64,000 nt of DNA from Escherichia phage phiSUSP1. Both the position numbers and the translations under genes were made by a program. Under the pieces are notes generated by a model. It was not told the DNA's origin. It saw nothing but the letters and a program-made list of their open reading frames with translations, and did no database searches. Below, piece by piece: positions 40,558 through 64,000 of the stretch (position 1 is the stretch's first letter; every line of letters starts with the position of its first letter). Location: sequence record KT454805; one strand, given 5' to 3'.

Positions 40558-40586
40558 AAAGCCCTGTACTTAGTATGGGGCTTTTT
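40558..40586 (+). terminator. terminator-like hairpin
   Basis: AAGCCC-tgtacttagtat-GGGGCTT followed by TTTTT. Confidence 0.45.
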
Positions 40587-40590
40587 CGTA

Positions 40591-43734: not shown

Positions 43735-43740
43735 TCTCTA

Positions 43741-43766
43741 AGGGGTCTCTTCGGAGACCCTTTTTC
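43741..43766 (+). terminator. intrinsic terminator (UUCG tetraloop)
   Basis: GGGGTCTC-ttcg-GAGACCC followed by TTTTT. Confidence 0.75.
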
Positions 43767-43786
43767 ACCTGTAGGACTCTAAAATA

Positions 43787-46021: not shown

Positions 46022-46076
46022 TTTTAATAACTATGAGGGTCGTAAAAGACCCTCTAAAATTAACTTGGAGAAAGAT

Positions 46077-46352
46077 ATGCTAGATTTAATTCGTAATGCA
46101 AGAGTACGTAGCAAAGATAGCTCACTATACTTATTCTATATCCCAAGACGGTCTTTGTATTATATTGCAGATTTGGACTTAAAAGTTAAGATGCCAGATG
46201 ATTCTTGGAAAGAGCATATACGTTATGTGGATTGCTTTAATCCAAAGCAAACATATGCAAGGCCACTAGATATGTTCAATAAGAACAATTGGGTTGTTTT
46301 GACGACAACCGAAGCCAGAAACTTTTTAGATACAGGAATCTTACCGGAATGA
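46077..46352 (+). CDS. small hypothetical protein between nrdA and nrdB (91 aa)
   Basis: in-frame ATG at 46077 with GGAG RBS; ATGA overlap with nrdB start. Confidence 0.3.
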   Translation: MLDLIRNARVRSKDSSLYLFYIPRRSLYYIADLDLKVKMPDDSWKEHIRYVDCFNPKQTYARPLDMFNKNNWVVLTTTEARNFLDTGILPE

Positions 46353-47422: not shown

Positions 47423-47664
47423 TGACTTATGTAATTTACTCAAAAGATGGATGCCCACAATGTGTGACTGCTAAAAACTTTGCTCAGGCTCGTGGCCTAG
47501 ACCACGTTGTAAGAATGCTTGGCAAAGATTATGAGCTAAGTGACCTTATGGATATTTCAAAAGTTCCTGTTCGTCAGATGCCTTTCATTATGAAGGTTGA
47601 AGATAATGAAATGAAACCAGTTGGAACACTACAAAACTTTATGGCAGAGGTGAATAATGCTTAA
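47422..47664 (+). CDS. glutaredoxin/NrdH-like redoxin
   Basis: 80 aa with CPQC active-site motif near N-terminus; adjacent to nrdB. Confidence 0.7.
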   Translation: MTYVIYSKDGCPQCVTAKNFAQARGLDHVVRMLGKDYELSDLMDISKVPVRQMPFIMKVEDNEMKPVGTLQNFMAEVNNA

Positions 47665-47857
47665 ACGTTTATGGGATGGTTTTGTTGAAGATGCACCGAT
47701 GATTGCTCTTGCATTCATGGTTATCAGTATGTTTACTGATTTAAAACAAGGTGTCCTCTTCGGAGCTATGCTAGTATGGGTTATCTTTGAGATACTGGAT
47801 ATTCAGCATGACTTAAGCGGAAAACTTAAAAAGCTTATTGAAAAGTTTTCTAAGTAG
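47657..47857 (+). CDS. small membrane protein (66 aa)
   Basis: two hydrophobic segments (MIALAFMVISMF, FGAMLVWVIFEIL). Confidence 0.3.
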   Translation: MLKRLWDGFVEDAPMIALAFMVISMFTDLKQGVLFGAMLVWVIFEILDIQHDLSGKLKKLIEKFSK

Positions 47858-47866
47858 ATTTAATAT

Positions 47867-47892
47867 AAGGGTCTCTTCGGAGACCTTTTTTG
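47867..47892 (+). terminator. intrinsic terminator (UUCG tetraloop)
   Basis: AAGGGTCTC-ttcg-GAGACCTT followed by TTTTTT. Confidence 0.75.
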
Positions 47893-47906
47893 CATTAGGA
47901 GTTAGA

Positions 47907-50048: not shown

Positions 50049-50056
50049 GGTGGTGA

Positions 50057-50620
50057 ATGAACTATGAACTAATCTATGACAAGTTAATGAAGAAAGCACA
50101 CTCTGAGAGGGGTGTGCCTTTAACATTTTACAAATGCCAAGGCTTAGGTTATGAGAGACACCATATCAAACCACTGTGTCTCGGAGGGGATAGATTTGAC
50201 GGTAGCAATATAGCCTTATTAACACCAAGGGAACATTATATTGCACACAAGCTTTTGGTTAAGATGCATCCTGAAAAGTACAAACTCTGGATTGCTTGGC
50301 AAAGGCTGTCTACAGATGGACTAAATAGAAAGGTTTCATCAAGAGACCATGAACACGTCAAACGTTTAAACTCAAAAGCTATGTCTATAATCAATAAAGG
50401 TAGATTGTTTACAGATGAGCATAGGTTTAGATTGAGTCAATCCCAGATTGGTAATACCAAGCCCAAAGGGTGTAAGAGGTCTTTAGAAACAAGGCAACGA
50501 ATGTCAGAATCTGCAAAGAAACCACAGGCGAAAAAGACGTGCCCATACTGCGGCATGACAGGTGGTGCAAGCAACATGACACGTTACCATTTTGAGAATT
50601 GTAAAAGTAAATCTATGTAA
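50057..50620 (+). CDS. HNH homing endonuclease inserted between nrdD and nrdG
   Basis: HNH motif ERHHIKPLCLGGDRFDGSNIALLTPREHYIAH; C-terminal Cys cluster. Confidence 0.75.
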   Translation: MNYELIYDKLMKKAHSERGVPLTFYKCQGLGYERHHIKPLCLGGDRFDGSNIALLTPREHYIAHKLLVKMHPEKYKLWIAWQRLSTDGLNRKVSSRDHEHVKRLNSKAMSIINKGRLFTDEHRFRLSQSQIGNTKPKGCKRSLETRQRMSESAKKPQAKKTCPYCGMTGGASNMTRYHFENCKSKSM

Positions 50621-50629
50621 GTAGTTGAC

Positions 50630-50670
50630 AAGGTGGTGTAGGTCTTGATAGGCTTACATCACCTTTTTTT
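50630..50670 (+). terminator. intrinsic terminator with 13-bp stem (two G-U wobbles)
   Basis: AAGGTGGTGTAGG...CTTACATCACCTT followed by TTTTTTT; a TTGACA hexamer sits immediately 5' at 50625. Confidence 0.6.
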
Positions 50671-50685
50671 ATTAGGAATCACAAC

Positions 50686-50787
50686 ATGATTAAGACATTC
50701 TTGTTAGTCACCTTAGTAGGCTCTGTTTTACTAGGTTTCTTGTTAGGGCTTTTATACAACACATTGAAAGGAAAGAAAGATGACTAA
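50686..50787 (+). CDS. small single-pass membrane peptide (33 aa), not in ORF track
   Basis: ATG at 50686 with AGGAA RBS; translation MIKTFLLVTLVGSVLLGFLLGLLYNTLKGKKDD; overlaps next gene start by 8 nt. Confidence 0.25.
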   Translation: MIKTFLLVTLVGSVLLGFLLGLLYNTLKGKKDD

Positions 50788-51172
50788 GTTAAATAAAAAT
50801 CAAATAAATTGGCTTAAAGACTATGCTTTAGAGTGTGGCTCTTGTAAGAAAACTCACAGAAAATACTCAGAGTTTTACATCACTTGCACATTGATGATAG
50901 ATGAAGAGGTTATTGGTGAATCTGAGGAAGAAGGTATTAGTATCCCTCCATCACTATGTGGTAAAGTTTTGGTAGCAACTGGTACATGGTCAGACTCATA
51001 TGGCACAGAGATTGGTGACCTATCCTTCTACAGCATTGAACAAACGATGAATCCAAAATATGTTACTCTTATGACTCGTGCTCAGGAAGATGAACTCCTT
51101 CAGGAATTTATTAAAGAACACTGTGAAGAGTACGTCACAAAACATGTAAGGTTTGAAGTTGAGGTGATTTAA
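50780..51172 (+). CDS. hypothetical protein (130 aa)
   Basis: ORF track; CGSC motif near N-terminus. Confidence 0.4.
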   Translation: MTKLNKNQINWLKDYALECGSCKKTHRKYSEFYITCTLMIDEEVIGESEEEGISIPPSLCGKVLVATGTWSDSYGTEIGDLSFYSIEQTMNPKYVTLMTRAQEDELLQEFIKEHCEEYVTKHVRFEVEVI

Positions 51173-51657
51173 TGAATTACATGGAAATACGAAAATTCGA
51201 TACAGCAAACGGTGAAGGTGCTCGTGTTAGTCTTTTTGTAGCTGGCTGCAAACACCACTGTGAAGGATGCTTTAACAGGGAGTCTTGGAAGTTTAATGCT
51301 GGCAAGGAGTTTACTTATGCAAACCTTTATGGCATTATGCAACTAATGAACGATGATGCTATCAGTGGATTCTCTATATTAGGTGGAGAACCTCTTGATG
51401 ACCGAAACGTACAGGAAGTGACAAATATCTGTAAGCGGATTAAGACTGTCTATCCAGATAAAACTATATGGTTGTGGACAGGTTACCAGCTACATGAAAA
51501 AATTCACTTAGAAGTGATGAAATATGTTGACGTGGTAGTAGATGGTAAGTATGATGCTTCTAAACCGACACACAAACCATATCGTGGGTCTGATAATCAA
51601 ATACTTTGGAGAAAAGAATATGGCTGGCAAGGTGACTGTCAATGGAGAGCAGAGTAG
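51172..51657 (+). CDS. nrdG: anaerobic ribonucleotide reductase activating protein (radical SAM)
   Basis: CX3CX2C motif CKHHCEGC; 161 aa; follows nrdD. Confidence 0.8.
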   Translation: MNYMEIRKFDTANGEGARVSLFVAGCKHHCEGCFNRESWKFNAGKEFTYANLYGIMQLMNDDAISGFSILGGEPLDDRNVQEVTNICKRIKTVYPDKTIWLWTGYQLHEKIHLEVMKYVDVVVDGKYDASKPTHKPYRGSDNQILWRKEYGWQGDCQWRAE

Positions 51658-51898
51658 CTACTCTGGTAAGTGGATTTATAACATCAACAAGCTTGATGCT
51701 TGGATGGTTTATACTCAAGAAAAATTTGGTGAGAGTGGTTTAACGGCTTTAGCTGCACTTGTTAAGCAGGTAACATTCACAGTTGAAGAAAAATCAACAC
51801 TTGGGGATGGACTAATGCTTTTCACTGATGTAAGATACGGAAACATACAAGTCTGTATTGAAAAAGAAGAACTAGACCAGTTCTGTATTAAACTTTAA
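51620..51898 (+). CDS. hypothetical protein (about 92 aa)
   Basis: in-frame ATG at 51620 with GGAGAAAAG RBS within ORF 51542..51898. Confidence 0.35.
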   Translation: MAGKVTVNGEQSSYSGKWIYNINKLDAWMVYTQEKFGESGLTALAALVKQVTFTVEEKSTLGDGLMLFTDVRYGNIQVCIEKEELDQFCIKL

Positions 51899-51913
51899 AA
51901 GAGAGATATTAAA

Positions 51914-52171
51914 ATGGGTATTTTTTCAAACATGAAAGCAGGTTTATTAGCAGCTCTGGCAAAAGCAGCAGCTATCGTTTCAATGACTGGTAAGCAGGTT
52001 GGAGTAGATGCTTCAGCAGTTGCACAGGTTTTTGCAAGCCAGATTGGACAGCAACCTTACATCCATGTTGGACGTGGTAAAGGTGGTAAGAAACAAGCTC
52101 ATCGCCAAACTGGTGCAGCAGCAATTAAACGTGCAGCTAAAAAAGCTCGCAACCGTAAACGTAGCAAGTAA
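51914..52171 (+). CDS. small basic protein (85 aa)
   Basis: C-terminus KRAAKKARNRKRSK. Confidence 0.35.
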   Translation: MGIFSNMKAGLLAALAKAAAIVSMTGKQVGVDASAVAQVFASQIGQQPYIHVGRGKGGKKQAHRQTGAAAIKRAAKKARNRKRSK

Positions 52172-52182
52172 GGATTACTAAA

Positions 52183-52494
52183 ATGGAAAAGATTTATAAC
52201 ACCCGTAAAATTCAGATTGCAATTCTGTGCCAATTCATGGCTGATAAACATGATTCACACTATTGCGGTACAGGTTTTCTTACTCTAGGTGGTGGGTATG
52301 TCAGCTTCAAAGAGGCTGTGAAGATGTACAATGAACATCCTGAAGATGATAAAGAGTTGAAGCAACTGAAGCTTACCTATGATAAGAAACGTAAGAAAAT
52401 TATATGCTTGAACAACCTTATCAAGCCAACTGAAAACGTTCATGATTCAATTGGCGAAGAAGGTTTCTTCAAAGTCTTGAAATTGGCTCAGTAA
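52183..52494 (+). CDS. hypothetical protein (103 aa)
   Basis: ORF track. Confidence 0.35.
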   Translation: MEKIYNTRKIQIAILCQFMADKHDSHYCGTGFLTLGGGYVSFKEAVKMYNEHPEDDKELKQLKLTYDKKRKKIICLNNLIKPTENVHDSIGEEGFFKVLKLAQ

Positions 52495-52506
52495 GAGTAT
52501 ATGATT

Positions 52507-52531
52507 AGGGAACTGTAAAAGGTTCCCTTTT
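52507..52531 (+). terminator. intrinsic terminator
   Basis: GGGAAC-tgtaaaa-GGTTCCC followed by TTTTT. Confidence 0.7.
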
Positions 52532-52546
52532 TATTTTGGAGAAATC

Positions 52547-53062
52547 ATGTACTATTCAAATCTAAAACATGCTGCTGCAATGTCTGTTCTTCGTCTTGAT
52601 TTCGATGAGCGTCAAGAGTTCATTGAATCCCACAAGTATAATCCTTCAAATTCTAATCACATGGTACTTTGGAACCGTGGTAAGTTCCGTGACAGTACCC
52701 TGTTTCAATACTATCCCCACTATACCATTGATAACCTCTATGAATATTGTGTTGTCAAGAACACTATAGCAACTCTTAACAAGCTTTGTAGATACTCTGG
52801 GAAGAAAGCTTTCACATTAGGCCACCATAAGCCTGTGACAAAAGGTGGAGAACATCATTGCTCAAACTGGTTTATTCAGACACAAGAAGATAATCAGAAG
52901 CAAGGTGAGAAGCTTCCTGAGACTCCTAAGATGACTTGGGAAGAACAAAAAGCATATCTCAGAAATAATATGCCACCAATGCTTGACAAGGACTATTCAA
53001 TTCTGGCAATATCTCTCTTGTTGAAGCTTGAGACAGTTTATGAGGCAACTTATCATGGCTAG
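52547..53062 (+). CDS. hypothetical protein with HNH-like motif (171 aa)
   Basis: LGHHKPVTKGGEHHCSNWFIQTQEDNQKQG resembles an HNH core. Confidence 0.35.
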   Translation: MYYSNLKHAAAMSVLRLDFDERQEFIESHKYNPSNSNHMVLWNRGKFRDSTLFQYYPHYTIDNLYEYCVVKNTIATLNKLCRYSGKKAFTLGHHKPVTKGGEHHCSNWFIQTQEDNQKQGEKLPETPKMTWEEQKAYLRNNMPPMLDKDYSILAISLLLKLETVYEATYHG

Positions 53063-53333
53063 AGAACAATGGGAAATCAAAGAACTCATTAGTGAAGCTG
53101 GAAATGGTAGTGAGATGTATATGATACGTGGTCACGTCCCAGATGCACTTGCTATTGAAATGATTGACCACTACTCCAACGGATTCTATAAAGAATTTGG
53201 AGAGCCAAATATTGAACGTACTTGGACAAAACCAGTACCAGATGGAACAGGGAACTGTTCAGTTATCTATCACATTGTAGACCCAAAGAAATGTAAGTCA
53301 GCTATGGCTGTAACATTTGTAACTTTTGACTGA
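53055..53333 (+). CDS. hypothetical protein (about 92 aa)
   Basis: in-frame ATG at 53055 within ORF 53028..53333. Confidence 0.3.
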   Translation: MAREQWEIKELISEAGNGSEMYMIRGHVPDALAIEMIDHYSNGFYKEFGEPNIERTWTKPVPDGTGNCSVIYHIVDPKKCKSAMAVTFVTFD

Positions 53334-53343
53334 GAGAAATATT

Positions 53344-54225
53344 ATGAAAACTATTATTCAAGTCCTGATTAATTCAAACTCTAAAGGCACTCACCAAGAG
53401 AACTTCAACATTATCCAGTTCCCTTCAGGAGAAATTGGTGGTAACTTCTCAGAAGATTTGGTAGACTTTGTTGAACATGCTGCTGGTAAGATTGATAACG
53501 TAATCTTCACGGTACAAGGCTATGATAAAGATACACTCTTTGCATTAGCTCTGGCTAAAGAAGCAATTGACCGTATGATTCCTCAGAAAGCAGCTATGAA
53601 GACTGTTGTCTTTGGTTTCTTACCAAATGCTAGATATGACCGTCACATGTTTAAAGGTGATGCAGCAGCACTTAAAGCATTTGCAAATCTTGTAAACGCT
53701 ATGGAGTTTGATGCAATTTGTGCTCTGGATGCTCATAGTAACGTGGCAGAGAATCTATTTAAGTGCTTCTACAACCTACCTCAAAAAGAGGCAGCAGTAC
53801 ACTTTGCAAGTGACCCACGAATTGATTACTTAGTGGCTCCAGATGCAGGTGCAGCTAAGAAGACTGAAGAAGCTGCTAAGGATGTTGAGAAGCCTTATAT
53901 CACAATGGCTAAGGTGCGTAACCTGAAAACTGGTGAAATCACTGGTATGCGAATCCTTGATGACGTAGATTTAACAGGCAAGACTGTCATGATTCTGGAT
54001 GATATCTGTGACGGTGGTCGTACCTTCATTGAGGCTGCAAAGTATCTTCGTGAAGCTGGTGCAGAACGTGTAGAACTGTATGTCACTCATGGGATTTTCT
54101 CTAAAGGTGTTGAAAATCTTCTTGACAACGGTATTGACCATATCTACACTACAAACTCACTAGGCGATGTAGAAGACCGTGGACTTTCACACTTCTCACA
54201 AGTGACTGTAGCAAACATTGAATAG
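53344..54225 (+). CDS. ribose-phosphate pyrophosphokinase family protein (Prs-like; possible ADPR-PP synthetase)
   Basis: Prs blocks ALDAHS, YLVAPDAGAAKK and PRTase loop VMILDDICDGGRT...YVTHGIFS; ORF track start 53326 is TTG, ATG at 53344 more likely. Confidence 0.65.
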   Translation: MKTIIQVLINSNSKGTHQENFNIIQFPSGEIGGNFSEDLVDFVEHAAGKIDNVIFTVQGYDKDTLFALALAKEAIDRMIPQKAAMKTVVFGFLPNARYDRHMFKGDAAALKAFANLVNAMEFDAICALDAHSNVAENLFKCFYNLPQKEAAVHFASDPRIDYLVAPDAGAAKKTEEAAKDVEKPYITMAKVRNLKTGEITGMRILDDVDLTGKTVMILDDICDGGRTFIEAAKYLREAGAERVELYVTHGIFSKGVENLLDNGIDHIYTTNSLGDVEDRGLSHFSQVTVANIE

Positions 54226-54233
54226 GTAACAAG

Positions 54234-54725
54234 ATGGATAAGGGTTACTTTGAAAAATACCTAAGATACGAACCAGAGACAGGTTTGTTAATTTGGAAAG
54301 TAACCCTTTGTAGCACCGCTATTGCTGGTAATGTGGCTGGCACAAGGTCTAAGAAGGGTTATATCCAAGTTCAGATAAACAAGAAGAGGTACTATGCACA
54401 CAATATCGCATGGATTCTATCTGGAGGTGAGATACCAAGTGGATATGAGATAGACCACATAGACCTTGACAAGACAAATAATAAGTTGGAAAACTTAAGA
54501 CTGAGTACAAAGTCACAAAACCAAAGAAATAGAGGTATACAAAAGAACAACAAAACTGGCGTGAAGGGTGTAAGTGTATGTACACAGACAGGTCTTTATA
54601 AAGCAAGAGTGATGCTTTATCATAAAGAATACTTTTGCGGAAGATTTAAAACGCTAGAAGAAGCGAAAGAAGCTGTAATTAAAAAACGATTAGAACTTCA
54701 TGGTAAGTTTGCAAGACATAACTAA
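54234..54725 (+). CDS. HNH homing endonuclease with AP2 domain
   Basis: HNH region IDHIDLDKTNNKLENLRLS; AP2-like GVKGVS...GLYKARVMLYHKEYFCGRFKTLEEAKEA; paralog of 31503..32030. Confidence 0.8.
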   Translation: MDKGYFEKYLRYEPETGLLIWKVTLCSTAIAGNVAGTRSKKGYIQVQINKKRYYAHNIAWILSGGEIPSGYEIDHIDLDKTNNKLENLRLSTKSQNQRNRGIQKNNKTGVKGVSVCTQTGLYKARVMLYHKEYFCGRFKTLEEAKEAVIKKRLELHGKFARHN

Positions 54726-54741
54726 TAGAGAGATATAAAAT

Positions 54742-56559
54742 ATGAGTAAATCACTTTACGCAGTACCAGCAGGTCTTAATGCAGATGCTTACAAGTCATC
54801 ACACATCTACCAGTATCCAGATGCTACTCAGTATCTTATGCTGAATTTAACGCCTCGTGGAGACAAATGGTTTAACTCTCCATTAGAAATTGATGGTGTT
54901 GTAGCATTTGGTATTCAGCGTTTTGTAAAAGACTATCTGGTAGACCACTGGAATGCAACGTTCTTTGAACGTGATAAGAAAGAAGCCATTGACGAAATCT
55001 TGGAAATCATGAATGGTGTACTTGGTGCAGATGCCATTGGTCGTCAACATTGGGAAGAACTTCATGACTTAGGTTATCTGCCTGTTGAAGTCTACTCTGT
55101 AGAGGAAGGTACAATTGTCCCTATGCGTGTCCCGATGATTATATTCAAAAACACTGTAGAGGGCTTCCATTGGGTAGCTGGTTATCTCGAAGATGCTTTC
55201 TCTGCTGAAATCTGGAAAGCTTGTACAATTGCAACTATTGCACTACATTACAAACGTATTTGTAAGAAGTGGTCAGATTTGACCTGTGATAACGACTTCC
55301 ATCTTCCTTGGCAGTGTCATGACTTTGCAATGCGTGGTATGTCTGGATTCACAGATGATGCGTTTAACGCAGTAGGTCACCTGACAAGTTTTAAAGGTAC
55401 TGACAGCTTCCCTGCTGTATACACAGCTAAACGTGCATATGGTCAGTTTATGACTGTAAGTGATATCGGGAACTCTGTACCAGCAACTGAACACTCTGTG
55501 ATGTGTGCAAACATCTCATGGAATAGTTGTGCCAAAGAAGTAAGTGATTGGCATCTGCTACAGTCTGACAACTTGTTAGATGCAATGCGTTGGCGTGGTG
55601 AGGTAGAAACTTTCCAACGTCTTCTGACAGAAGTCTACCCAACTGGTATTGCAAGTGTTGTATCAGATACTTACAACTTCTGGAGAACTGTTACACAGAT
55701 TTTACCAGAGCTACGTAATGTGATTCTGAATCGTGATGGTAAGTTGGTAATCCGTCCAGACTCTGGAGACCCTGTTCACATTGTCACTGGTTACAAAGTC
55801 ATTGAATGGGAAACTGCTAAGTCAATGTTCTATAAGCACATGAAAGGTCTTGCACCAGATAACACCCACCTGCATGATGCAATCTTGAATTGTGAAATGG
55901 CTGATATTGGCTTTGGATTATCTGCTTGGCTAATCTCTGAAGGTTATGAGATGGTTGTTGAAAATGAAGATTTTGATTATATTGATACAATCAACCTGAT
56001 TACTGCTCAGAAAACTGGACAGTTTACTGTGAAGCGTATGTTAACAGCAGAAATTGATGGAGCTATCCACACGCTGTATAACATCTTTGGTGGTACTGTT
56101 AACTCCAAAGGGTACAAAGTACTGGATGAGCACATTGGACTAATCTACGGTGATTCTATCACTTTGGAAAGGGCTAATGAGATTCTATCACGTCTTGCTG
56201 ATAAAGGTTTTGCAAGTTCTAACGTAGTGTTTGGTGTAGGTTCATACACCTATCAGTACCTGACTCGTGATACCTTTGCATTTGCTGTTAAAGCAACTCT
56301 TGCACAGATGGACGGTCAAGAAATCATGCTGGCTAAAGACCCTAAAACAGATAGTGGTCTGAAGAAATCTGCTTTTGGTGGAGTCATCCCTATGTGGGAC
56401 GGTGATAAGCTGGAAGCTGTAGATGGTTTTGGTTTTGCAGAGTTTGAAGGTGCAATTGAGAATTGTCAGAGCGCTTTGAAACTGGTATTTAGCAACTCAC
56501 AACCTTATGGTTATGTTAATCTACGTGATGTACGAAATACTATTGACAAGCAACTTTAA
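54742..56559 (+). CDS. nicotinamide phosphoribosyltransferase family protein (Nampt/NadV-like)
   Basis: blocks match Nampt from memory: DAYKSSHIYQYP, HDFAMRGMSGFTDDAFNAVGHLTSFKGTDS, VPATEHS, VVSDTYNFW, LVIRPDSGDPV. Confidence 0.8.
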   Translation: MSKSLYAVPAGLNADAYKSSHIYQYPDATQYLMLNLTPRGDKWFNSPLEIDGVVAFGIQRFVKDYLVDHWNATFFERDKKEAIDEILEIMNGVLGADAIGRQHWEELHDLGYLPVEVYSVEEGTIVPMRVPMIIFKNTVEGFHWVAGYLEDAFSAEIWKACTIATIALHYKRICKKWSDLTCDNDFHLPWQCHDFAMRGMSGFTDDAFNAVGHLTSFKGTDSFPAVYTAKRAYGQFMTVSDIGNSVPATEHSVMCANISWNSCAKEVSDWHLLQSDNLLDAMRWRGEVETFQRLLTEVYPTGIASVVSDTYNFWRTVTQILPELRNVILNRDGKLVIRPDSGDPVHIVTGYKVIEWETAKSMFYKHMKGLAPDNTHLHDAILNCEMADIGFGLSAWLISEGYEMVVENEDFDYIDTINLITAQKTGQFTVKRMLTAEIDGAIHTLYNIFGGTVNSKGYKVLDEHIGLIYGDSITLERANEILSRLADKGFASSNVVFGVGSYTYQYLTRDTFAFAVKATLAQMDGQEIMLAKDPKTDSGLKKSAFGGVIPMWDGDKLEAVDGFGFAEFEGAIENCQSALKLVFSNSQPYGYVNLRDVRNTIDKQL

Positions 56560-56571
56560 AACAGTATGATA

Positions 56572-56596
56572 AGAGGCTCCTACGGGAGCCTTTTTA
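56572..56596 (+). terminator. intrinsic terminator
   Basis: GAGGCTCC-tacg-GGAGCCT followed by TTTTT; identical to the hairpin at 62766. Confidence 0.75.
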
Positions 56597-56612
56597 ATTT
56601 GTGGAGAATGTT

Positions 56613-56828
56613 ATGAGATTTAACACTGATTTATTTTATACAGATAGTACTGGATTCTTTGGTGGATACTGTGTAGCATCTTGGCAGTTATGGTTCTCAG
56701 AAGACTACAGAGATGATATGCAGGTTTTTGTAGATGATTACAAGTTCCCTACAAAACCCACTAAACGTCAGATTAGAAAGCTTCGCAGAGAGTTTCGTAA
56801 AACTTGCAAAGGGATTAATAGACTATGA
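56613..56828 (+). CDS. hypothetical protein (about 71 aa)
   Basis: in-frame ATG at 56613 within ORF 56601..56828. Confidence 0.3.
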   Translation: MRFNTDLFYTDSTGFFGGYCVASWQLWFSEDYRDDMQVFVDDYKFPTKPTKRQIRKLRREFRKTCKGINRL

Positions 56829-57160
56829 AAATTAAACAGATGAATGTCAATGTAATCATTGAAGAACGTTGGGAAAATATTCAGCGACCTGAAGATGGTC
56901 ACAAGTTTATCAACGAACTGTTTCAAGCAGCACAGTCAGAGTTAGCTTCTGAGATTTATACAACGGTCACTTTGAAGGTTTACATCAAAGGTCTGCCACA
57001 AAATCACCAAGAGGCACTTGATTTGTTCCAAAAAGGATTCTACAATCCAAATAAAGATATACTTGAGAACAGTTTTGCAGTATCTTCGAGTATTGTTCAT
57101 GACAGAAGTTTTGTCCTATTCAGAACTGTAGGAGATAAGGTATGCAAAGTTATTGGTTAG
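56825..57160 (+). CDS. hypothetical protein (111 aa)
   Basis: ORF track; coupled start. Confidence 0.35.
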   Translation: MKIKQMNVNVIIEERWENIQRPEDGHKFINELFQAAQSELASEIYTTVTLKVYIKGLPQNHQEALDLFQKGFYNPNKDILENSFAVSSSIVHDRSFVLFRTVGDKVCKVIG

Positions 57161-57321
57161 AACTTGTACTGTCACTCGGTTGCATTGTTGCTATTGCAGT
57201 GATACTATGCAGATACTTCTCAGAGACAGAACCTTGTGATGAGTGTGAAGGCTCTGATATAGCTGGTATGGGGCATTGTTGCCCTTACTGTAACGGAACT
57301 GGAAAGAAATTTAAAAAGTAA
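57142..57321 (+). CDS. small membrane protein with C-terminal Cys cluster (59 aa), not in ORF track
   Basis: ATG at 57142 after GGAGATAAGG; translation MQSYWLELVLSLGCIVAIAVILCRYFSETEPCDECEGSDIAGMGHCCPYCNGTGKKFKK. Confidence 0.3.
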   Translation: MQSYWLELVLSLGCIVAIAVILCRYFSETEPCDECEGSDIAGMGHCCPYCNGTGKKFKK

Positions 57322-57322
57322 C

Positions 57323-57359
57323 TTGACAGTGGCATCTATAAAATTATATAGTTTGCCAC
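57323..57359 (+). promoter_or_regulatory. sigma70-like promoter (TTGACA, about 16-17-nt spacer, TATATA) inside a GTGGCA...TGCCAC palindrome
   Basis: hexamers read directly; 6-bp inverted repeat at 57329..57334 and 57354..57359; upstream of rIIA-like gene. Confidence 0.5.
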
Positions 57360-57383
57360 ATCAACCACTAAGGAGATATTCTT

Positions 57384-59756
57384 ATGCGCATGGTAAATGA
57401 CCACGCAACTGTAATTAAAAGCTCAAGTACACTGGAAACCTCTCAGGCTCAGATTAAGATGACACCTGAAATGTTCAGTCTCCTAAGCTCAGGTGTTTAC
57501 ACATACAAAGAACGTGCTGTTATTCGTGAGTTATCATGTAACGCAGTAGATGCTCACATTGATTCTGGTAATGTTGATAAACCTTTCTTGGTTCACTTAC
57601 CAACTCGTTTTGAACCTTTCTTTGAAGTTCGTGATTTTGGTACAGGTCTGACTCATGATAAAGTTATGAAGCTTTACATGACCTATGGAGAATCTACAAA
57701 GAATGATTCGAACGACTACATCGGTGCTATGGGTATCGGCTCAAAGTCACCATTTGCAATTGCTCAGTCATTTACTGTGTCAAGCTATGTTGATGGTGTA
57801 GTTAATAAATACTCAGTTTATCTTGAGAATGGTATTCCTCAAGTGACTAAGTTGACTACTAACCCAACTACCGAACCAAATGGTTTAGCTGTTCGCGTAG
57901 CAGTATCTGACAACCGTATTAATAAGTTCCATGAAGAAGCAAGTAATGTTTACTCATACTTCAAAGTGAAACCAGAATGCAACGTTGAGTACTACGACAT
58001 TCTTGAAGCGATGACTTCCATCTCTCGTGAAGATGGTATCTATGATGCAATGAAGTACAAAGAAAACTGGCGTTCAAATAGTAACAGTGTACATTTCAAT
58101 GTAATCATGGGTAATATTGCTTATCCTGTTGAAATGGGTGAACTGCTTGGTTCAGAGTTTACAAGTATTCTGCCTCAGTTCTTCCGTAGTGCTGTAGACC
58201 TTGTTAATATCTACATGCCAATCGGTTCAGTGGCTATCGCTGCATCTCGTGAAGCATTGCAGATGAATGAGACCACTAAGACAAAGATTGTTGAAGCTGT
58301 GAAGAAAATCACTAAGACAATAGTTGAAGATGTGGTAAAAGAGATTGCTAATAAGCCAACTCTGATTGATGCTGCACAAGCTTATGACACCATGAGGAAA
58401 GAGGCTCGTGAAATCTTTAATCACGTCCAAGATTCTCTGGAGTGGCAAGGTCAGAACTTGAAAAAGCTTGAACAAAAGCTGTTGGGTATTCGTCGTGGTC
58501 AGTTAACTGAAGCAGATGGTTCTCCATCATTCTTGAAAGATGATGCAGGTAACTTAAGGCTTGACAAAGACGGTAATCCAGTTCCTAATATTGGTAATCT
58601 GTATGAACCTGTAGCGTATTACAAGTACAGCAGTCTGGAGAATCGTATTCGAGCAACTTCAGCAACATATTCACAAGATGCTGCAATGTTCAGTATCTTT
58701 GGTGCAATGAGTAAAGATAAGTTGAGCAACTACTTGTTCCTTATCAATGACCGTCGAAACAAGAACGGGTCTGAAAAGACGACTGGTAAAAATCAGATTA
58801 TCCGTGGAGCTTGCCGTGACCGTGAACAGGAAGATTCTAACTTCCGTCGCTATAATGGTATTGCTTTCTTGTTCAGCAGTCAGCAGCAATTTGATGAGTT
58901 TGTAGCTTTGCATATGCTTGACAAGAATCTGTTAAGTGTGCATACAATGTCAGCTAAAGAGCACCACTATGAGAAACGTACCATTGTACGTGGTGTAGTG
59001 AAACTGTACAAAGCATACTTCAGCCCTGCAACTGGAAGGGTTCTTTATACGGAAGTTAAAGAAAACTTTGATGAGATTGAAGAACCACAACTATATATCA
59101 AAGCACAGAGTGATGAAGTTCTGGGTGGTATCTTCTCATGCTCACCAGAACGTGCTGCAACGTTGATGACAGAACTAACTGGACAACCAGTTTATGTCTT
59201 CCGTAAAGCAAACTGGAAAAAGATTCCTGAAGATTGGGCTGAAGTCAATGCACAGGTGATGAAAGATTTTATTGAGAATACTCACTGGATTGAGTATCAT
59301 CGATACTTGACGTATCAGTATATGACTGATAAGCATGATATTACAGACTGTAATGTTGTTGCTCGTAACTTCAACTTTGCTGGTAAGAAGAAGTCAAGAG
59401 GTCATGTATATAACAAAGACTTTGATTCAACAATCCTGTTAGAAGGGAACGAAGACGCTGTAGAAGCAATGTTTGGTCGCTTGGCATACACTGCTGCACC
59501 GATTGCTTATAAAGAAGTCTACAGCACTCTTGACACTCTTCGCAGGAATATGAGAGGCTCTTGTAAGCCAAGAAAGATTCTGGACAATGCTAAGAAGCGT
59601 CTTGAAAGCAAGTTCAAAGATTACTTTGAGAAACGCCGTAAAGAAAACTTCTTGCTTTCTAATCTGGATTGGAATAAAGTGTCACCTGTTGAAGTTGGTA
59701 GGTTCTTAGGATTTGACGTTAGAGGTCTTCCAGAAGATACCAACTGTTGGGAATAA
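57384..59756 (+). CDS. rIIA: rIIA-like protein with N-terminal GHKL ATPase domain
   Basis: Bergerat-fold motifs ELSCNAVDA (N box), DFGTGL (G1), GAMGIGSKS (G2); 790 aa; followed by rIIB-sized gene. Confidence 0.5.
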   Translation: MRMVNDHATVIKSSSTLETSQAQIKMTPEMFSLLSSGVYTYKERAVIRELSCNAVDAHIDSGNVDKPFLVHLPTRFEPFFEVRDFGTGLTHDKVMKLYMTYGESTKNDSNDYIGAMGIGSKSPFAIAQSFTVSSYVDGVVNKYSVYLENGIPQVTKLTTNPTTEPNGLAVRVAVSDNRINKFHEEASNVYSYFKVKPECNVEYYDILEAMTSISREDGIYDAMKYKENWRSNSNSVHFNVIMGNIAYPVEMGELLGSEFTSILPQFFRSAVDLVNIYMPIGSVAIAASREALQMNETTKTKIVEAVKKITKTIVEDVVKEIANKPTLIDAAQAYDTMRKEAREIFNHVQDSLEWQGQNLKKLEQKLLGIRRGQLTEADGSPSFLKDDAGNLRLDKDGNPVPNIGNLYEPVAYYKYSSLENRIRATSATYSQDAAMFSIFGAMSKDKLSNYLFLINDRRNKNGSEKTTGKNQIIRGACRDREQEDSNFRRYNGIAFLFSSQQQFDEFVALHMLDKNLLSVHTMSAKEHHYEKRTIVRGVVKLYKAYFSPATGRVLYTEVKENFDEIEEPQLYIKAQSDEVLGGIFSCSPERAATLMTELTGQPVYVFRKANWKKIPEDWAEVNAQVMKDFIENTHWIEYHRYLTYQYMTDKHDITDCNVVARNFNFAGKKKSRGHVYNKDFDSTILLEGNEDAVEAMFGRLAYTAAPIAYKEVYSTLDTLRRNMRGSCKPRKILDNAKKRLESKFKDYFEKRRKENFLLSNLDWNKVSPVEVGRFLGFDVRGLPEDTNCWE

Positions 59757-59762
59757 AATAGT

Positions 59763-59791
59763 TTGACAGGGGCTGAAAAGCCCCTTAGAAT
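59763..59791 (+). promoter_or_regulatory. sigma70-like promoter (TTGACA, 17-nt spacer, TAGAAT) with GAAA-loop hairpin in the spacer
   Basis: spacer is GGGGCT-gaaa-AGCCCC. Confidence 0.5.
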
Positions 59792-59834
59792 ACGAACCAC
59801 TAAGTAACTTTAAACAACAAAGAGAGATATTAAG

Positions 59835-60956
59835 ATGACTACTAAGACTAAAGCACAAATCGACGCAGAAATCTACGCACTGGTTAAAGAAGGTAAACTG
59901 ACCAAAACTGCAATTGCTCTGAAGTACAATACTTCAACTCGTTCTGTAGGTCGTGCTGTAGAGCGTCATGAAGCAACTCTGCTGACAGGGAAAACCAAAG
60001 CAAAACCTGCAAAGACCCTGAAAGATATTGCAAAGGGTGCTAAGAAAGCTAAAGCAACTAAAAAGGTAGCTACCCAGAAACCTATTGCAAAAGCTGTTAA
60101 AGAGGCAGCCAAAGCAGAACCTGTAAATGCTCTGCACGAAGCGATGCAGAATAACAGCCAGATTGAGTACATGATTACTGGTGACTCGGTTATCATGACT
60201 TTCGGTGCAGAGTCAGAGATTGTTGAGTCAACTCACCCTAACTACACTGAAATTGTTATGGCTGTTGTATCAGGTGAGTACAAGAAAGCCTTTGAACTGA
60301 TGAACATTCGCAAATCCATTGAGAACTTCACTCAGGGTGCTGTGACCATTAAAGGTGATAACCTGTACTACGGTGCTGTTCAAATGCGTTCAACTCTGGT
60401 AGACCGTATTCTGGACATGATGAAGAAAGGCGATGAAGGCTTTACCCGTCTTATTGCATTCTTCGAAAAACTGATGGAAAACCCATCAAAAGATTCTGTA
60501 GAACAACTTTGGGGCTTTGTGTCACACCTCGATGTTGAAATTGATGAAGAAGGTTATATCATCGGTTGGAAGAAAGTCACAACTCGTAGTGGTAAACTGT
60601 TTGACTCTCGTACCTGCAAAGTGCCAAACGATTTGGGTAACATTGTTGAAATGCCACGTTGGATGGTTGATAATAACCGCCATGTAACATGCTCTCAAGG
60701 TCTACATGTTGGTGCTTGGGATTACGTAACTAGCTTCTCTGGTGACACTATCCTGAAAGTTCGTGTTCACCCTCGTGATGTTGTTTCAGTACCAACTGAC
60801 TACAACGATATGAAGATGCGAGCCTCTCGTTATGAAGTTGCAGCGATTGTAAATAGTCGCCGTGAAGTCATCAAAGAGTGGGATGGTTCAGAAGCACTCC
60901 ACGTAGTTGTAGGAACTGCTGGTGAACTGATTTCTCAGCGTAAACGTGAAGTCTAA
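59835..60956 (+). CDS. rIIB: rIIB-like protein (putative)
   Basis: 373 aa ORF directly downstream of the rIIA-like gene; no independent motif. Confidence 0.35.
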   Translation: MTTKTKAQIDAEIYALVKEGKLTKTAIALKYNTSTRSVGRAVERHEATLLTGKTKAKPAKTLKDIAKGAKKAKATKKVATQKPIAKAVKEAAKAEPVNALHEAMQNNSQIEYMITGDSVIMTFGAESEIVESTHPNYTEIVMAVVSGEYKKAFELMNIRKSIENFTQGAVTIKGDNLYYGAVQMRSTLVDRILDMMKKGDEGFTRLIAFFEKLMENPSKDSVEQLWGFVSHLDVEIDEEGYIIGWKKVTTRSGKLFDSRTCKVPNDLGNIVEMPRWMVDNNRHVTCSQGLHVGAWDYVTSFSGDTILKVRVHPRDVVSVPTDYNDMKMRASRYEVAAIVNSRREVIKEWDGSEALHVVVGTAGELISQRKREV

Positions 60957-60972
60957 TAAGTAAATTCCTAAA

Positions 60973-60997
60973 TGGGCTGCTTCGGCAGCCTTTTTTA
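60973..60997 (+). terminator. intrinsic terminator (UUCG tetraloop)
   Basis: GGCTGC-ttcg-GCAGCC followed by TTTTTT. Confidence 0.75.
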
Positions 60998-60998
60998 T

Positions 60999-61026
60999 TT
61001 GAAAAATGTGCAGGATGATGTATAAT
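60999..61026 (+). promoter_or_regulatory. strong sigma70-like promoter (TTGAAA, 16-nt spacer, TATAAT)
   Basis: hexamers read directly; sits between the terminator and the transglycosylase gene. Confidence 0.6.
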
Positions 61027-61057
61027 TGTCTGCATGTTTAACAAAATAGGAGTGCAA

Positions 61058-61606
61058 ATGAAGAAATTTGTTTTAGGTTTGTGCTTATTCTTTACAGCAC
61101 ATTTAGCTACAGCATCTGACTGTCCAGAACTTACAATCAGCCAGAAAGTAAATATGTTAAAAGCATATAACTATGGCGAAGGACAGATGGGAAAAGGTTG
61201 GGGAATCCCTTTAGCAGCTATAGCCTTACAAGAGTCACAATTAGGTGTCATGTTAGAAAATAAAAGGACTCATGATTATGGTGTTTTCCAGAATCACTTG
61301 AAGACTGTTGTAAAGCGTAACAAAGTATCTCCAAAGGTTGCTAAGAAGAAGTTGGTAAGTGACTTCCATTACTCAGCAAAAGAGGCTCATAAAGAGTTGC
61401 TATTCTGGACAAAGGTTCACGGTAACCCAGATGGAAAGTACTCTATGAAGCGTGTCCTAGCTTCTTATAATGCTGGTTACAAATATAAGATTCCAAAGGC
61501 TAGACAATACTCTCAAGATGTGTACAATAACATGAAACTGCTTGCTCAATGTGAGTTTGCAACAAACATTAAAAAGGTAAAATATGAGCGAATCAAAACA
61601 ATTTGA
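61058..61606 (+). CDS. secreted lytic transglycosylase (SLT-domain, signal peptide)
   Basis: signal peptide MKKFVLGLCLFFTAHLATA; SLT-like motifs AIALQESQLG, GVFQ, ASYNAG; AGGAG RBS. Confidence 0.55.
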   Translation: MKKFVLGLCLFFTAHLATASDCPELTISQKVNMLKAYNYGEGQMGKGWGIPLAAIALQESQLGVMLENKRTHDYGVFQNHLKTVVKRNKVSPKVAKKKLVSDFHYSAKEAHKELLFWTKVHGNPDGKYSMKRVLASYNAGYKYKIPKARQYSQDVYNNMKLLAQCEFATNIKKVKYERIKTI

Positions 61607-62279
61607 TACGGTTCTGTGTCATGCTTATGATATCAAACCACTTGATTTAGATATCAGTTCTGCAAGCTGGTCAGACGTTGCTAAAGCTGACTTTGCAGAT
61701 ACAGCAAGATATGTTGCGTGTAGCTTTGAAGACTTTCATTCAACAAAGACACAGATTCCTTGTCAAGATTTGCTAACAGGTAAAACTGTGTATGTAGGTC
61801 GCAATAGTCTTATCTTGGTTGCAAAGAACTTGGAAGAAAAACGTAAGATGGTCTTAGCAGATATTGACGGTGTTCTTACAAGCTTTGATAAGAAACTTAA
61901 CGCAACCTTGTTAGATGATGGTACTTACTCACAGTACACTAACTTGGTAGACTCTCGCAGAGCTAAACCAACTTATGTTTTTAACATTCTGTGTGGTATA
62001 TCACAAAATGCTGATATAGGATTCTTAACTGCTCGTGGTGAATCTCAAAGAGTGGTCACTCACCTCTTCCTGAATGAAAATGTAGACAGTAACTTCTTAC
62101 TGTTTATGCGTGGATTTGGTGACAATGAAATTAGTGCAGAAAGTTTGAAAGTTCGTATGCTTCAGTCTTGCATTCTACCTTACTATGATGTAGTATGCTT
62201 TATAGAAGATACAGTAAAGAACGTGGCAAAGGTTGAAAGAATCTTACCACACATCAAAACAATGCTTGTTAAAAACTGA
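61584..62279 (+). CDS. HAD-like hydrolase domain protein (putative)
   Basis: motif-I-like LADIDGVLT; 231 aa. Confidence 0.35.
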   Translation: MSESKQFDTVLCHAYDIKPLDLDISSASWSDVAKADFADTARYVACSFEDFHSTKTQIPCQDLLTGKTVYVGRNSLILVAKNLEEKRKMVLADIDGVLTSFDKKLNATLLDDGTYSQYTNLVDSRRAKPTYVFNILCGISQNADIGFLTARGESQRVVTHLFLNENVDSNFLLFMRGFGDNEISAESLKVRMLQSCILPYYDVVCFIEDTVKNVAKVERILPHIKTMLVKN

Positions 62280-62290
62280 GAGAGTAAATC

Positions 62291-62755
62291 ATGCAAAACA
62301 TTATTACAGTAGCTATCGATGCTTCCGGTAACAAATCACAGGTAGTTCGTGAGATTATCAAGAATAACTTCGATGGTAAAATCTTTCGTGCAGTAAACGT
62401 GAAAGCTGATGGTAACATTCGTGAGTATCGTGCAATGTTGAATGTAACAAAACACGTTAAAGGTGTTGGCTCAACAACTGCACATAAAGAAAATCTGATG
62501 ACTATCTATGATATGGGTATGGCTTCAGAGTTAGGTGCAAAAGGTATTATACAATCCGGTGCTCCTTACCGTTCTTTCAATCTGGAAACTGCTCTTATGC
62601 TTTCCTTTACAAGTGGTTCTCAAACTACCACTTACCTCTTCACAGACTCTGCAACGGTGTCTGCGATTAAGGATAATACCATTAAGGCTGGCGTAGCTGC
62701 TGCTTCAAAAGCCTCAACAATGGCAGCAAATGTCCTTGCGAAAGTTCTTGGTTAA
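62291..62755 (+). CDS. hypothetical protein (154 aa)
   Basis: ORF track; good RBS. Confidence 0.4.
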   Translation: MQNIITVAIDASGNKSQVVREIIKNNFDGKIFRAVNVKADGNIREYRAMLNVTKHVKGVGSTTAHKENLMTIYDMGMASELGAKGIIQSGAPYRSFNLETALMLSFTSGSQTTTYLFTDSATVSAIKDNTIKAGVAAASKASTMAANVLAKVLG

Positions 62756-62765
62756 AGTTATTATA

Positions 62766-62790
62766 GAGGCTCCTACGGGAGCCTTTTTCA
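62766..62790 (+). terminator. intrinsic terminator
   Basis: GAGGCTCC-tacg-GGAGCCT followed by TTTTT. Confidence 0.75.
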
Positions 62791-62807
62791 TTTTTAGGAG
62801 AAGTTAA

Positions 62808-63155
62808 ATGACATTTAAAGAATTTTGTCAAGCAGCTTTTGTAATCATTTTCTTAATAGGTGTTGGTGCTTGGGGAGGTTACACTTACAAGACCAGCCAA
62901 GTTAATGAAAAGGAGTTAACTAACCAGAGACTTGTAAGTGTTGCTAAAGATGCTTATCAAGAAGGTTTATCAAATCTTAGCTCCAATTACAAAAATGATT
63001 TGAAAGATGTGCTTGCTAAAAACAAACACACAAAAGAGGTATTGAATTATGAAAAAACTAAGACAGTCTTTATTAATGATTGTGCTACTGAGCCTTATGT
63101 CAGGGTGTTCAACGAACAAAGTGAACAGTACCTTCAAAAACTCCCAAGTAAGTGA
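62808..63155 (+). CDS. i-spanin (Rz-like)
   Basis: N-terminal TM segment FVIIFLIGVGAWGGY then charged helical periplasmic region; o-spanin gene embedded at its 3' end. Confidence 0.5.
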   Translation: MTFKEFCQAAFVIIFLIGVGAWGGYTYKTSQVNEKELTNQRLVSVAKDAYQEGLSNLSSNYKNDLKDVLAKNKHTKEVLNYEKTKTVFINDCATEPYVRVFNEQSEQYLQKLPSK

Positions 63156-63318
63156 GAGTGACAAGTATACTCAAGAGGAAGCACGATATGAAGTCAAAAG
63201 CACTAAAGGTAAAGATATTGCAAGTGCTCTTGAGTTTTATCGTGACGGCTACTATGAGTGTACTATCAAGGCAAACAACTTGATTGATATGATTTTGTTA
63301 GGGAATAAGCAGCAATGA
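63049..63318 (+). CDS. o-spanin (Rz1-like outer-membrane lipoprotein)
   Basis: lipoprotein signal MKKLRQSLLMIVLLSLMSGC (lipobox LMSGC); starts inside the i-spanin gene in another frame and extends past its stop. Confidence 0.55.
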   Translation: MKKLRQSLLMIVLLSLMSGCSTNKVNSTFKNSQVSESDKYTQEEARYEVKSTKGKDIASALEFYRDGYYECTIKANNLIDMILLGNKQQ

Positions 63319-63584
63319 CAGAAAAGAATGAAACTTTTTTCGTGGAAGGTTACCTTCTGTTACCAAGACCAAATAACACCTACATGAGATTTGACATTAT
63401 GCCAACGGTTATGGATGATGTAACCTGTCACATCTTTATGCAAGGTGTTTCTGCACAACTTAAACATGTTGGAAGAGATTGCAAAATACGTGTTGACAAC
63501 CACCCTGAAATCAACGAGAATCACTACACATGGTTCGGGGAAGATTCTAAAGAAATCTACGCAGTTCTTAAAACGAGGAAATAA
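63315..63584 (+). CDS. hypothetical protein (89 aa)
   Basis: ORF track. Confidence 0.35.
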   Translation: MTEKNETFFVEGYLLLPRPNNTYMRFDIMPTVMDDVTCHIFMQGVSAQLKHVGRDCKIRVDNHPEINENHYTWFGEDSKEIYAVLKTRK

Positions 63585-63585
63585 C

Positions 63586-63747
63586 ATGGATAAGCAAGAG
63601 TTGCTTAAACTGATTGAAGAGTATGGTGATTCCCGTTACAATGAAGCTGGAGAAAGCTGTGTAGGTTCTATAGAGGCATTAACACTCTGGGAAGAATCCT
63701 CAGCAGCTTTACTTCAGCAGATTAAAGAGGTTATTGCAAATGGGTGA
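63586..63747 (+). CDS. small hypothetical protein (about 53 aa)
   Basis: in-frame ATG at 63586 with AGGAA RBS within ORF 63445..63747. Confidence 0.25.
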   Translation: MDKQELLKLIEEYGDSRYNEAGESCVGSIEALTLWEESSAALLQQIKEVIANG

Positions 63748-64000
63748 CTGTGCAGATGATGCAGACCGTTGGGCTGAACTCCAAGATTTAAGAGCAGAGT
63801 TTAGAGACCTCTTAGTGAGGTCTTCTAAAACAAATGTAGAGTATACACAAAAGGATTTTCCAAAGGCTCCTTTGTATGTTATACATCAAAACAATCTAAT
63901 GAACTCTGGATTAAGTTTGCAACAAAGGATGGACATTTGCCTAGCAAGGTATTACATTAATGTTGATGCCAAAGTTGGTGACTTGATTAAGTGTCCATGT
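63740..64000 (+). CDS. hypothetical protein, 3'-truncated at window edge
   Basis: ATG at 63740 overlapping the previous stop; frame open to end of window. Confidence 0.25.
   Translation, partial: MGDCADDADRWAELQDLRAEFRDLLVRSSKTNVEYTQKDFPKAPLYVIHQNNLMNSGLSLQQRMDICLARYYINVDAKVGDLIKCPC

Follow-up and report, generated by a model that had tools for sequence, protein, structure and literature searches.

The 64,000-nucleotide stretch analysed here, called the window below, comprises bases 1..64000 of Escherichia phage phiSUSP1 (SUSP1; sequence record KT454805, gene table NC_028808), a Felix O1-like myophage of the Ounavirinae; the SUSP1 gene table, given in the supplement of the CRISPRi-ART study, agrees exactly with the ORF coordinates of the window. 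Our subject is agp083, a gene that lies between rIIB and a polynucleotide kinase (PNK) gene in the following arrangement.

57384..59756: rIIA, upstream of rIIB
59835..60956: rIIB, directly upstream of the agp083 unit
60974..60991, + strand: intrinsic terminator of the rIIB transcript, GGGCTGC-TTCG-GCAGCCT and then TTTTTTATTT
60999..61026, + strand: sigma70-type promoter, TTGAAA-16-TATAAT, with 11/12 matches
61047..61051, + strand: Shine-Dalgarno sequence AGGAG, 6 nt before the agp083 ATG; Michonne has a ribosome-binding site (RBS) annotated at the corresponding position
61058..61606, + strand: AVU07_agp083, 182 aa, Vs.1-family coding sequence for a predicted exported SLT-fold peptidoglycan glycosidase
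61058..61114, + strand: predicted Sec signal peptide, residues 1-19 (MKKFVLGLCLFFTAHLATA / SD), from a sequence reading and the family pattern
61115..61603, + strand: mature catalytic domain, with Cys22, Cys165, E59-S60, D73-Y-G-V-F-Q78, W117, Y137-N-A-G140 and Y151
61584..62279, + strand: PNK gene, pseT-like (phrog_3970, E=6e-126)
62291..62755, + strand: phrog_2267 gene (profile match), last of the agp083 unit
62765..62786, + strand: terminator closing the agp083-PNK-phrog_2267 unit, also annotated in Michonne
62808..63155, + strand: i-spanin gene (phrog_1152, Rz-like spanin), in a separate transcription unit
63049..63318, + strand: o-spanin gene with lipobox LMSGC; it overlaps the i-spanin gene

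The agp083 ORF extends over 182 codons from the ATG at 61058 to the TGA at 61604-61606, and the opposite strand holds only trivial ORFs of 30-38 aa. A longer ORF from the ATG at 61034 was rejected: it has no RBS, and its start is implausible because only 8 nt separate it from the -10 box. Orthologs of agp083 are p003 in Felix O1 and vs.1 in T4. With Citrobacter phage vB_CbrM_HP1 the region shares 97.7% identity, and the structural part matches Escherichia phage SUSP2 with 97% identity, the coordinates being the same.

The rIIB terminator has a 7-bp stem with 5 GC pairs and a T-run, is annotated as such in Michonne and is kept in relatives. Directly after it starts the agp083 promoter, so that the preliminary description was right to place a near-consensus TTGAAA-16-TATAAT element immediately behind a terminator. 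Promoter sites with at least 11/12 matches number five on both strands of the 64 kb, compared to 1.75 +/- 1.27 in simulated (Markov-1) sequence, and four of the five cluster on the + strand at 56.5-61.0 kb, where they precede a small-ORF unit, rIIA, rIIB and agp083. Across relatives from Mooglevirus, Suspvirus and Felixounavirus, the hairpin, the -35 TTG and the perfect TATAAT are kept, while the spacer and the tail of the -35 element drift. As the phage uses the host polymerase throughout, expression from a sigma70-like promoter need not be confined to the early phase.

The PNK gene overlaps the 3' end of agp083 by 23 nt. Since the terminator at 62765..62786 stands ahead of the spanin genes, the transcription unit consists of agp083, the PNK gene and the phrog_2267 gene, with the spanins outside it. 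The spanin pair begins 1.2 kb past agp083, and the two genes between them, as well as the lack of any holin gene adjacent to agp083, had been read correctly from the sequence at the outset. In T4, the PNK gene (pseT) adjoins the spanin genes pseT.2 and pseT.3, with vs.1 located 72 kb away. Thus, the short distance between agp083 and the spanins reflects a linkage of PNK and spanins, which T4 keeps without vs.1, and not a lysis cassette.

The N-terminus of the agp083 protein, MKK / FVLGLCLFFTAHL / ATA-SD, follows the n-, h- and c-region pattern of a signal peptide with an A-x-A site. Conservation was counted in 39 diverse family representatives, and all 39 have a signal-peptide-like N-terminus, in which an n-region rich in K/R precedes a hydrophobic h-region; in this three-part pattern the Sec signal peptide claimed in the preliminary description is borne out, the call for agp083 itself being a heuristic reading of sequence pattern. 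Across the representatives the catalytic Glu is found at residue 52-75, with a single domain of ~150 aa after the export signal, and in the AlphaFold model of the agp083 protein the signal segment has low pLDDT and forms a detached helix. From these patterns, export of the protein is strongly predicted, and Ala19 is probably the last residue that signal peptidase I removes. Two other types of N-terminus were considered and rejected. In a lipoprotein, the signal peptide closes with a lipobox of the form [LVI][ASTVI][GAS]C. The agp083 protein has none, its Cys9 lying inside the h-region after L-G-L, with Leu at -1, and a lipoprotein was therefore rejected. A signal-arrest-release (SAR) anchor was rejected as well, the h-region FVLGLCLFFTAHL being Leu/Phe-rich (Kyte-Doolittle 2.5 over 10 residues) and followed by A-T-A/S. 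Two further cysteines, Cys22 and Cys165, are both present in 19 representatives, both absent from 15 and mixed in 5 (Fisher p=3.5e-6). Their co-occurrence suggests a periplasmic disulfide, which probably stabilises the protein in that compartment.

The model of the agp083 protein has an overall pLDDT of 78.7, with 88-95 over most core blocks and a basic, low-confidence tail at residues 166-182, and it shows the alpha-helical fold of goose-type lysozymes and SLT enzymes. Its fold relatives are MltF (13.3), Slt/Slt70 (12.3/11.7), MltC (11.9), goose-type lysozyme (11.6), EtgA (11.0) and MltE (10.9), and Foldseek agrees on these families. Searching the PDB, Foldseek finds only lytic transglycosylases among its best matches, but with weak E-values (0.14 and worse); searching the BFVD, it finds phage proteins named 'Transglycosylase SLT domain' at a TM of about 0.7. 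The Pfam SLT profile PF01464 matches the agp083 protein with E=0.0019 and 18.2 bits, below the gathering cut-off of 21.3, and matches 26 of the 39 representatives individually at E<=0.01 (best 3e-9); a precomputed PF01464 match is present in two homologs. No NCBIfam match was found for the agp083 protein, T4 Vs.1 or six relatives.

The sequence motifs agree with this fold. The agp083 protein contains E59-S60, G75-V-F-Q78 and S136-Y-N-A-G140, corresponding to ES, G-hydrophobic-hydrophobic-Q and AYNxG, the motifs of family-1 lytic transglycosylases. The ES, GVFQ and AYNAG-like motifs had been pointed out before, and they prove to be invariant or nearly so in the family: E59, G63, Y137 and Y151 are invariant in the 39 representatives, and S60, G75, W117, N138 and G140 are conserved in at least 90%. 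When family profiles were compared with PDB sequences, the best solved relative was EtgA (E=6.6e-5), followed by C-type lysozymes matched through 'ES...DYGxFQ', both reached solely by the broader of two profiles. The matches that the single sequence and the narrower profile gave in PDB sequences, an ankyrin design and PRP4 kinase, were dismissed as chance.

By motif, E59, D73, Q78, Y137-N138-x-G140 and Y151 of the agp083 protein correspond to E42, D60, Q65, Y116-N117-x-G119 and Y133 of EtgA, so that the two share an active-site set that includes an Asp at the position of D52 in hen lysozyme, the equivalent of EtgA D60 (PMC10880428). The authors of that work call EtgA a muramidase/lytic transglycosylase 'hybrid' whose chemistry could be of either kind (PMC10880428). 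Position 73 is Asp in 21 of the 39 relatives and Ser in 14, and in T4 Vs.1 it is His. Given Asp73 at this site, hydrolytic (muramidase) and lytic transglycosylase-like chemistry are equally possible for the agp083 protein, and 'lytic transglycosylase' is here a fold assignment, not demonstrated chemistry.

The agp083 protein belongs to a large family. It matches phrog_600 with E=3.9e-57 (residues 1-170 on positions 1-176 of the 178 in the profile), T4 Vs.1 matches it end to end with E=2.1e-68, and the supplement of the CRISPRi-ART study places both T4p112 and SUSP1 agp083 in phrog_600. Between the two proteins, BLASTP finds 31% identity over residues 1-155 (E=4e-14), which we regard as a full-length alignment. 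By sequence, agp083 is an ortholog of T4 vs.1 within the SLT-lysozyme superfamily, and its family (T4 Vs.1 / PHROG 600) had been predicted before. Homologs were found by tblastn in 1,868 phage records, including T4-like phages, T4-like phages of Aeromonas and Vibrio, Ounavirinae and other genomes of ~130-260 kb; in T4-type genomes the match is the ORF between regB and vs, that is, vs.1. Among the organism names listed, all hosts are Gram-negative. A profile search against 1.8 billion cluster representatives matched 624 clusters, and among the 150 of them listed, most proteins are 160-210 aa long and a few reach 300, with alignments starting from near the N-termini.

T4 Vs.1 (T4p112, UniProt P13311) is the closest known system to compare. 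It has 181 aa to the 182 of the agp083 protein, a signal-peptide-like N-terminus and the same ES, GxFQ, W and SYNxG motifs, and both genes lie in early regions. In contrast to the agp083 protein, it carries His in place of Asp73 and has neither the basic tail at the C-terminus nor the cysteine pair Cys22/Cys165, and its gene is flanked by regB and vs instead of rIIB and PNK. Family-1 lytic transglycosylases such as Slt70, MltC, MltE and MltF (PF01464) share their motifs with the agp083 protein, which, however, has no lipid anchor or accessory domains, and Slt70 has Ala at the position of Asp73 (PMC10880428). Specialised glycosidases of the EtgA/IagB/IpgF/P19 type have the same overall build, with ~150-180 aa, a single SLT-like domain, a Sec signal peptide and a disulfide. 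Unlike these secretion-system-linked enzymes, the agp083 protein is phage-encoded and has neither a link to a secretion apparatus nor a known EscI-like partner. Moreover, its predicted disulfide joins C22 and C165, compared to C20 and C89 in EtgA, and the similarity between the two proteins is at the superfamily level only.

The lysis genes of the phage lie elsewhere in the genome, one of them outside the window.

22942..23139, + strand: agp027, small membrane protein of 65 aa, fitness-critical in SUSP1
23136..23510, + strand: agp028, last in the tail-fibre operon and published as a 'putative (class III) holin' (PMC4591319)
79585..80049: agp124, soluble GH24 endolysin (phrog_7), 15.6 kb beyond the end of the window

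No GH24 lysozyme gene is present within the 64-kb window. A canonical soluble GH24 endolysin is encoded by every relative as well, homologs of agp124 being HP1_14, Michonne gp96 and SUSP2 gp120. In the genome announcements of Moogle and Michonne, the lysis genes are described as 'scattered around the genome' and comprise those for a soluble lysozyme, the two spanins and a putative class III holin, the last being the homolog of agp028 (PMC4591319). The apparent 'endolysin without holin' is therefore a product of the window boundary and of the scattering of lysis genes in Felix O1-like phages. The putative holin agp028 is 38 kb from agp083. Of the places in which a holin had been suspected, 22942..23510 was a reasonable guess, as it covers both the published putative holin and the fitness-critical agp027, which is possibly the real holin; 47657..47857 (agp065) has nothing to recommend it beyond being a small gene without an assigned function. 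We conclude that the job of lysis endolysin probably belongs to soluble GH24 agp124, together with holin and spanins.

Timing and fitness data come mainly from T4 and from CRISPRi-ART. T4 vs.1 is classed as 'early RNA / middle protein' (PMC9697503 supplement), a timing in keeping with the sigma70-type promoter of agp083 and its place in an operon with PNK. The combination of late expression with holin or spanin linkage in one unit is not found for agp083. In CRISPRi-ART, SUSP1 agp083 has a fitness of 1.02 (KS p=0.28, Not Fit), T4 vs.1 has 0.81 (KS p=0.099, Semi-Fit) and the SUSP1 endolysin gene agp124 has 0.82 (KS p=0.14, Not Fit); the list of Fit genes does not include T4 e. Because the assay also misses T4 e and agp124, 'Not Fit' is uninformative for lysis enzymes, and the data do not separate agp083 from the canonical endolysin gene, so that the two muralytic enzymes may be partly redundant. 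The authors of that study list T4 vs.1 among five Semi-Fit genes of unknown function whose phenotypes may reflect inhibition of host defence.

Taken together, we favour as the probable explanation that agp083 encodes a predicted Sec-exported periplasmic peptidoglycan glycosidase of the Vs.1 family, with an accessory role before lysis and not that of the lysis endolysin. Host RNA polymerase would read agp083 early from its strong sigma70-type promoter, ahead of the two other genes in the unit, and the Sec system would export the product, to be processed by signal peptidase I after Ala19. In the periplasm, the protein with its predicted Cys22-Cys165 disulfide would cut the MurNAc-GlcNAc backbone with Glu59 as the general acid. 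Its activity would have to be limited, so that the cell survives until holin, GH24 endolysin and spanins fire; by analogy, it probably works in the manner of EtgA, making restricted and non-lethal cuts in the wall while located in the periplasm. Our guess is that the sacculus is thereby remodelled or weakened ahead of lysis, at a modest and condition-dependent fitness benefit, and the enzyme may possibly assist phage complexes that span the envelope, or contribute to when lysis occurs.

Two readings had been offered in the preliminary description, and the evidence favours the one in which the enzyme stays in the periplasm and has a task other than lysis, or an accessory one. The other, a Sec-secreted endolysin that lyses the cell without a canonical holin or is fully redundant with the GH24 lysozyme, is in our view rather improbable, even though it starts from the same muralytic fold, which is predicted to be exported and whose active site is intact. 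It would account for neither agp083 nor agp124 being individually 'Fit', as redundancy predicts, but this result is uninformative for an assay that also misses T4 e. Some GenBank homologs bear the name 'putative lysin', beside others called 'SLT domain-containing protein' or 'lysozyme-like domain', and Nolan et al. (2006) described T4 vs.1 as SLT-like and suggested 'some role in cell lysis'. Against this, the same genome also encodes a canonical soluble endolysin, spanins and a putative holin, agp083 sits in an early-type sigma70/PNK operon that a terminator separates from the spanins and not in a late or lysis unit, and its T4 ortholog is transcribed early. Classical genetics adds that T4 e mutants fail to lyse despite an intact vs.1, which argues against a holin-independent secreted endolysin, and we infer that early production of a highly active, unregulated periplasmic endolysin would be fatal to the host before new virions could assemble. 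Exported muralytic enzymes of phages are exemplified by fOg44 Lys44, P1 Lyz and phage 21 R21, to which the agp083 protein is similar in being phage-encoded and, by prediction, exported. Genes for such signal-peptide or SAR endolysins are late and stand with a holin or pinholin gene in a lysis cassette. Unlike them, agp083 is of early type, belongs to a PNK operon and exists beside a soluble endolysin, and the N-terminus of its product is a Leu/Phe-rich signal of the cleavable type instead of a Gly/Ala-rich SAR segment.

Somewhat less unlikely, though still well behind the accessory enzyme, is that agp083 serves mainly in superinfection, competition or defence and not in lysis of its own host cell. 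Examples would be blocking the tail lysozyme or DNA injection of an incoming phage, protection against lysis from without, or action against a host defence based in the envelope. Imm and Sp of T4 are the comparison for early, periplasmic proteins, and the early expression and periplasmic location expected for the agp083 protein recall them. Moreover, agp083 adjoins rIIA/rIIB and PNK, which are counter-defence genes; it is dispensable for SUSP1 in a laboratory strain, with T4 vs.1 only Semi-Fit, and vs.1 is one of the possible inhibitors of host defence named by the CRISPRi-ART authors. However, such a role would be a conjecture, the neighbourhood differs between phages (regB-vs.1-vs in T4, rIIB-gene-PNK in Ounavirinae), and the strict conservation of the catalytic site marks an enzyme without pointing to exclusion. 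That the protein is instead an inactive peptidoglycan-binding protein or decoy with a lysozyme-like fold is very improbable. Its score below the Pfam gathering threshold and a single-sequence PDB search without a genuine match would fit such a decoy, but the catalytic Glu is invariant in 39/39 representatives, and the Tyr, Asn, Gly and Gln positions that bind substrate in EtgA and Slt70 are all kept. We give the least credence to a virion-associated wall-piercing enzyme like T7 gp16, PRD1 P7 or phiKZ gp144. SLT-fold enzymes are common in phage tails, and T4 Vs.1 weakly matches the 'lytic tail protein' phrog_2013 (E=1e-5), but the Sec signal found in 39/39 members implies that Vs.1 proteins leave the cytoplasm, where virions assemble. 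Furthermore, agp083 has its place in the early region, a long way from the structural module, and the part of the VpaE1 gene table covered here lists the homolog ORF03 as 'hypothetical', with the 'structural' ORF51 and ORF55 in the structural region.

Beyond the accessory role itself, we tentatively raise the idea, which we regard as possible but doubtful, that the Vs.1 family is the phage counterpart of EtgA-type specialised glycosidases: exported early, equipped with a hybrid active site and making controlled gaps in the sacculus. Such gaps might serve to thread spanin or other envelope complexes, to set the timing of lysis or to exclude rival phages. If true, this would explain why ~1,870 large virulent phages of Gram-negative hosts keep a vs.1 homolog beside a normal endolysin, as well as the Semi-Fit knockdown of T4 vs.1. 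Predicted to be SLT-like since 2006, Vs.1 / PHROG 600 is among the most widespread unexplained families of large virulent phages, and solving its periplasmic role would fill a gap in the infection cycles of T4 and Felix O1 and might reveal a step of cell-wall remodelling before lysis. The 'enzybiotic' lysin reported in Sci Rep 2022 is the GH24 endolysin and not the agp083 protein; the latter, if active, would be of minor interest for such use, with a natural action from the periplasmic side.

Mapping sigma70 consensus matches across the 64-kb window, we found that four of the five best (11/12) lie on the plus strand within 56543..61026, each just 5' of a gene or unit: the small ORFs, rIIA, rIIB and the SLT-like gene. 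Upstream, a terminator accompanies several of these four. From sequence, this stretch looks like a series of strong early transcription units, each terminated independently.

The protein encoded by the SLT-like gene ends in a lysine-rich extension, which is limited to its closest Ounavirinae relatives:
61553..61603, plus strand, C-terminal tail, residues 166-182, EFATNIKKVKYERIKTI
The tail directly follows Cys165 and is modeled with low confidence, and its last codons overlap the start of the polynucleotide kinase (PNK) gene. It could be membrane- or LPS-binding, or a mere by-product of the gene overlap.

Beyond this overlap, the spanin genes are linked to PNK, followed by a small ORF just 3' of the spanins:
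61584..63318, plus strand, PNK, an unknown gene, i-spanin and o-spanin, in that order
63586..63747, plus strand, agp089, a 53-aa ORF
The order of the first four genes mirrors the T4 linkage pseT.3-pseT.2-pseT.1-pseT, although in T4 the spanins lie on the opposite side of PNK compared with SUSP1. PNK-spanin linkage is common to two distant myophage groups. In the published SUSP1 knockdown screen, agp089 was graded Fit (1.89, p=0.016), and complementation by the screen's authors confirmed that it is critical for SUSP1 infection.

In HP1 and SUSP2, both Ounavirinae relatives, a macro-domain protein (ADP-ribose-binding or phosphatase) is encoded a few genes 3' of the Vs.1-type gene. T4 likewise encodes one downstream of vs.1, just after vs, and by its coordinates it is tk.4:
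10970..11764, HP1 locus (L001)
63176..63958, SUSP2
3877..4344, T4 locus (L043)
This position may be a leftover of early-region synteny common to the Ounavirinae relatives and T4.

Two adjoining genes bear on the holin question:
22942..23139, plus strand, agp027, 65 aa, phrog_402
23136..23510, plus strand, agp028, annotated as a putative holin
The agp028 product has a single TMD and a coiled-coil-like C-terminus, and in the same screen the gene scored 0.20, Not Fit. agp027 scored strongly Fit (2.27, p=0.0007); its product, hydrophobic at the N-terminus and highly charged at the C-terminus, may be either the true holin or a different essential membrane protein. Homologs of agp027, every one annotated as hypothetical, are present in 375 phage records, some of them from T4-like phages.

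Judged by sequence identity, the SUSP1 genome is a mosaic: Mooglevirus phages (HP1) match its rII/PNK/spanin region at 96-98%, whereas the structural module shares 97% identity with SUSP2 and only about 84% with HP1, and the tail-fibre region (about 20.3-22.2 kb) diverges from HP1 far more.
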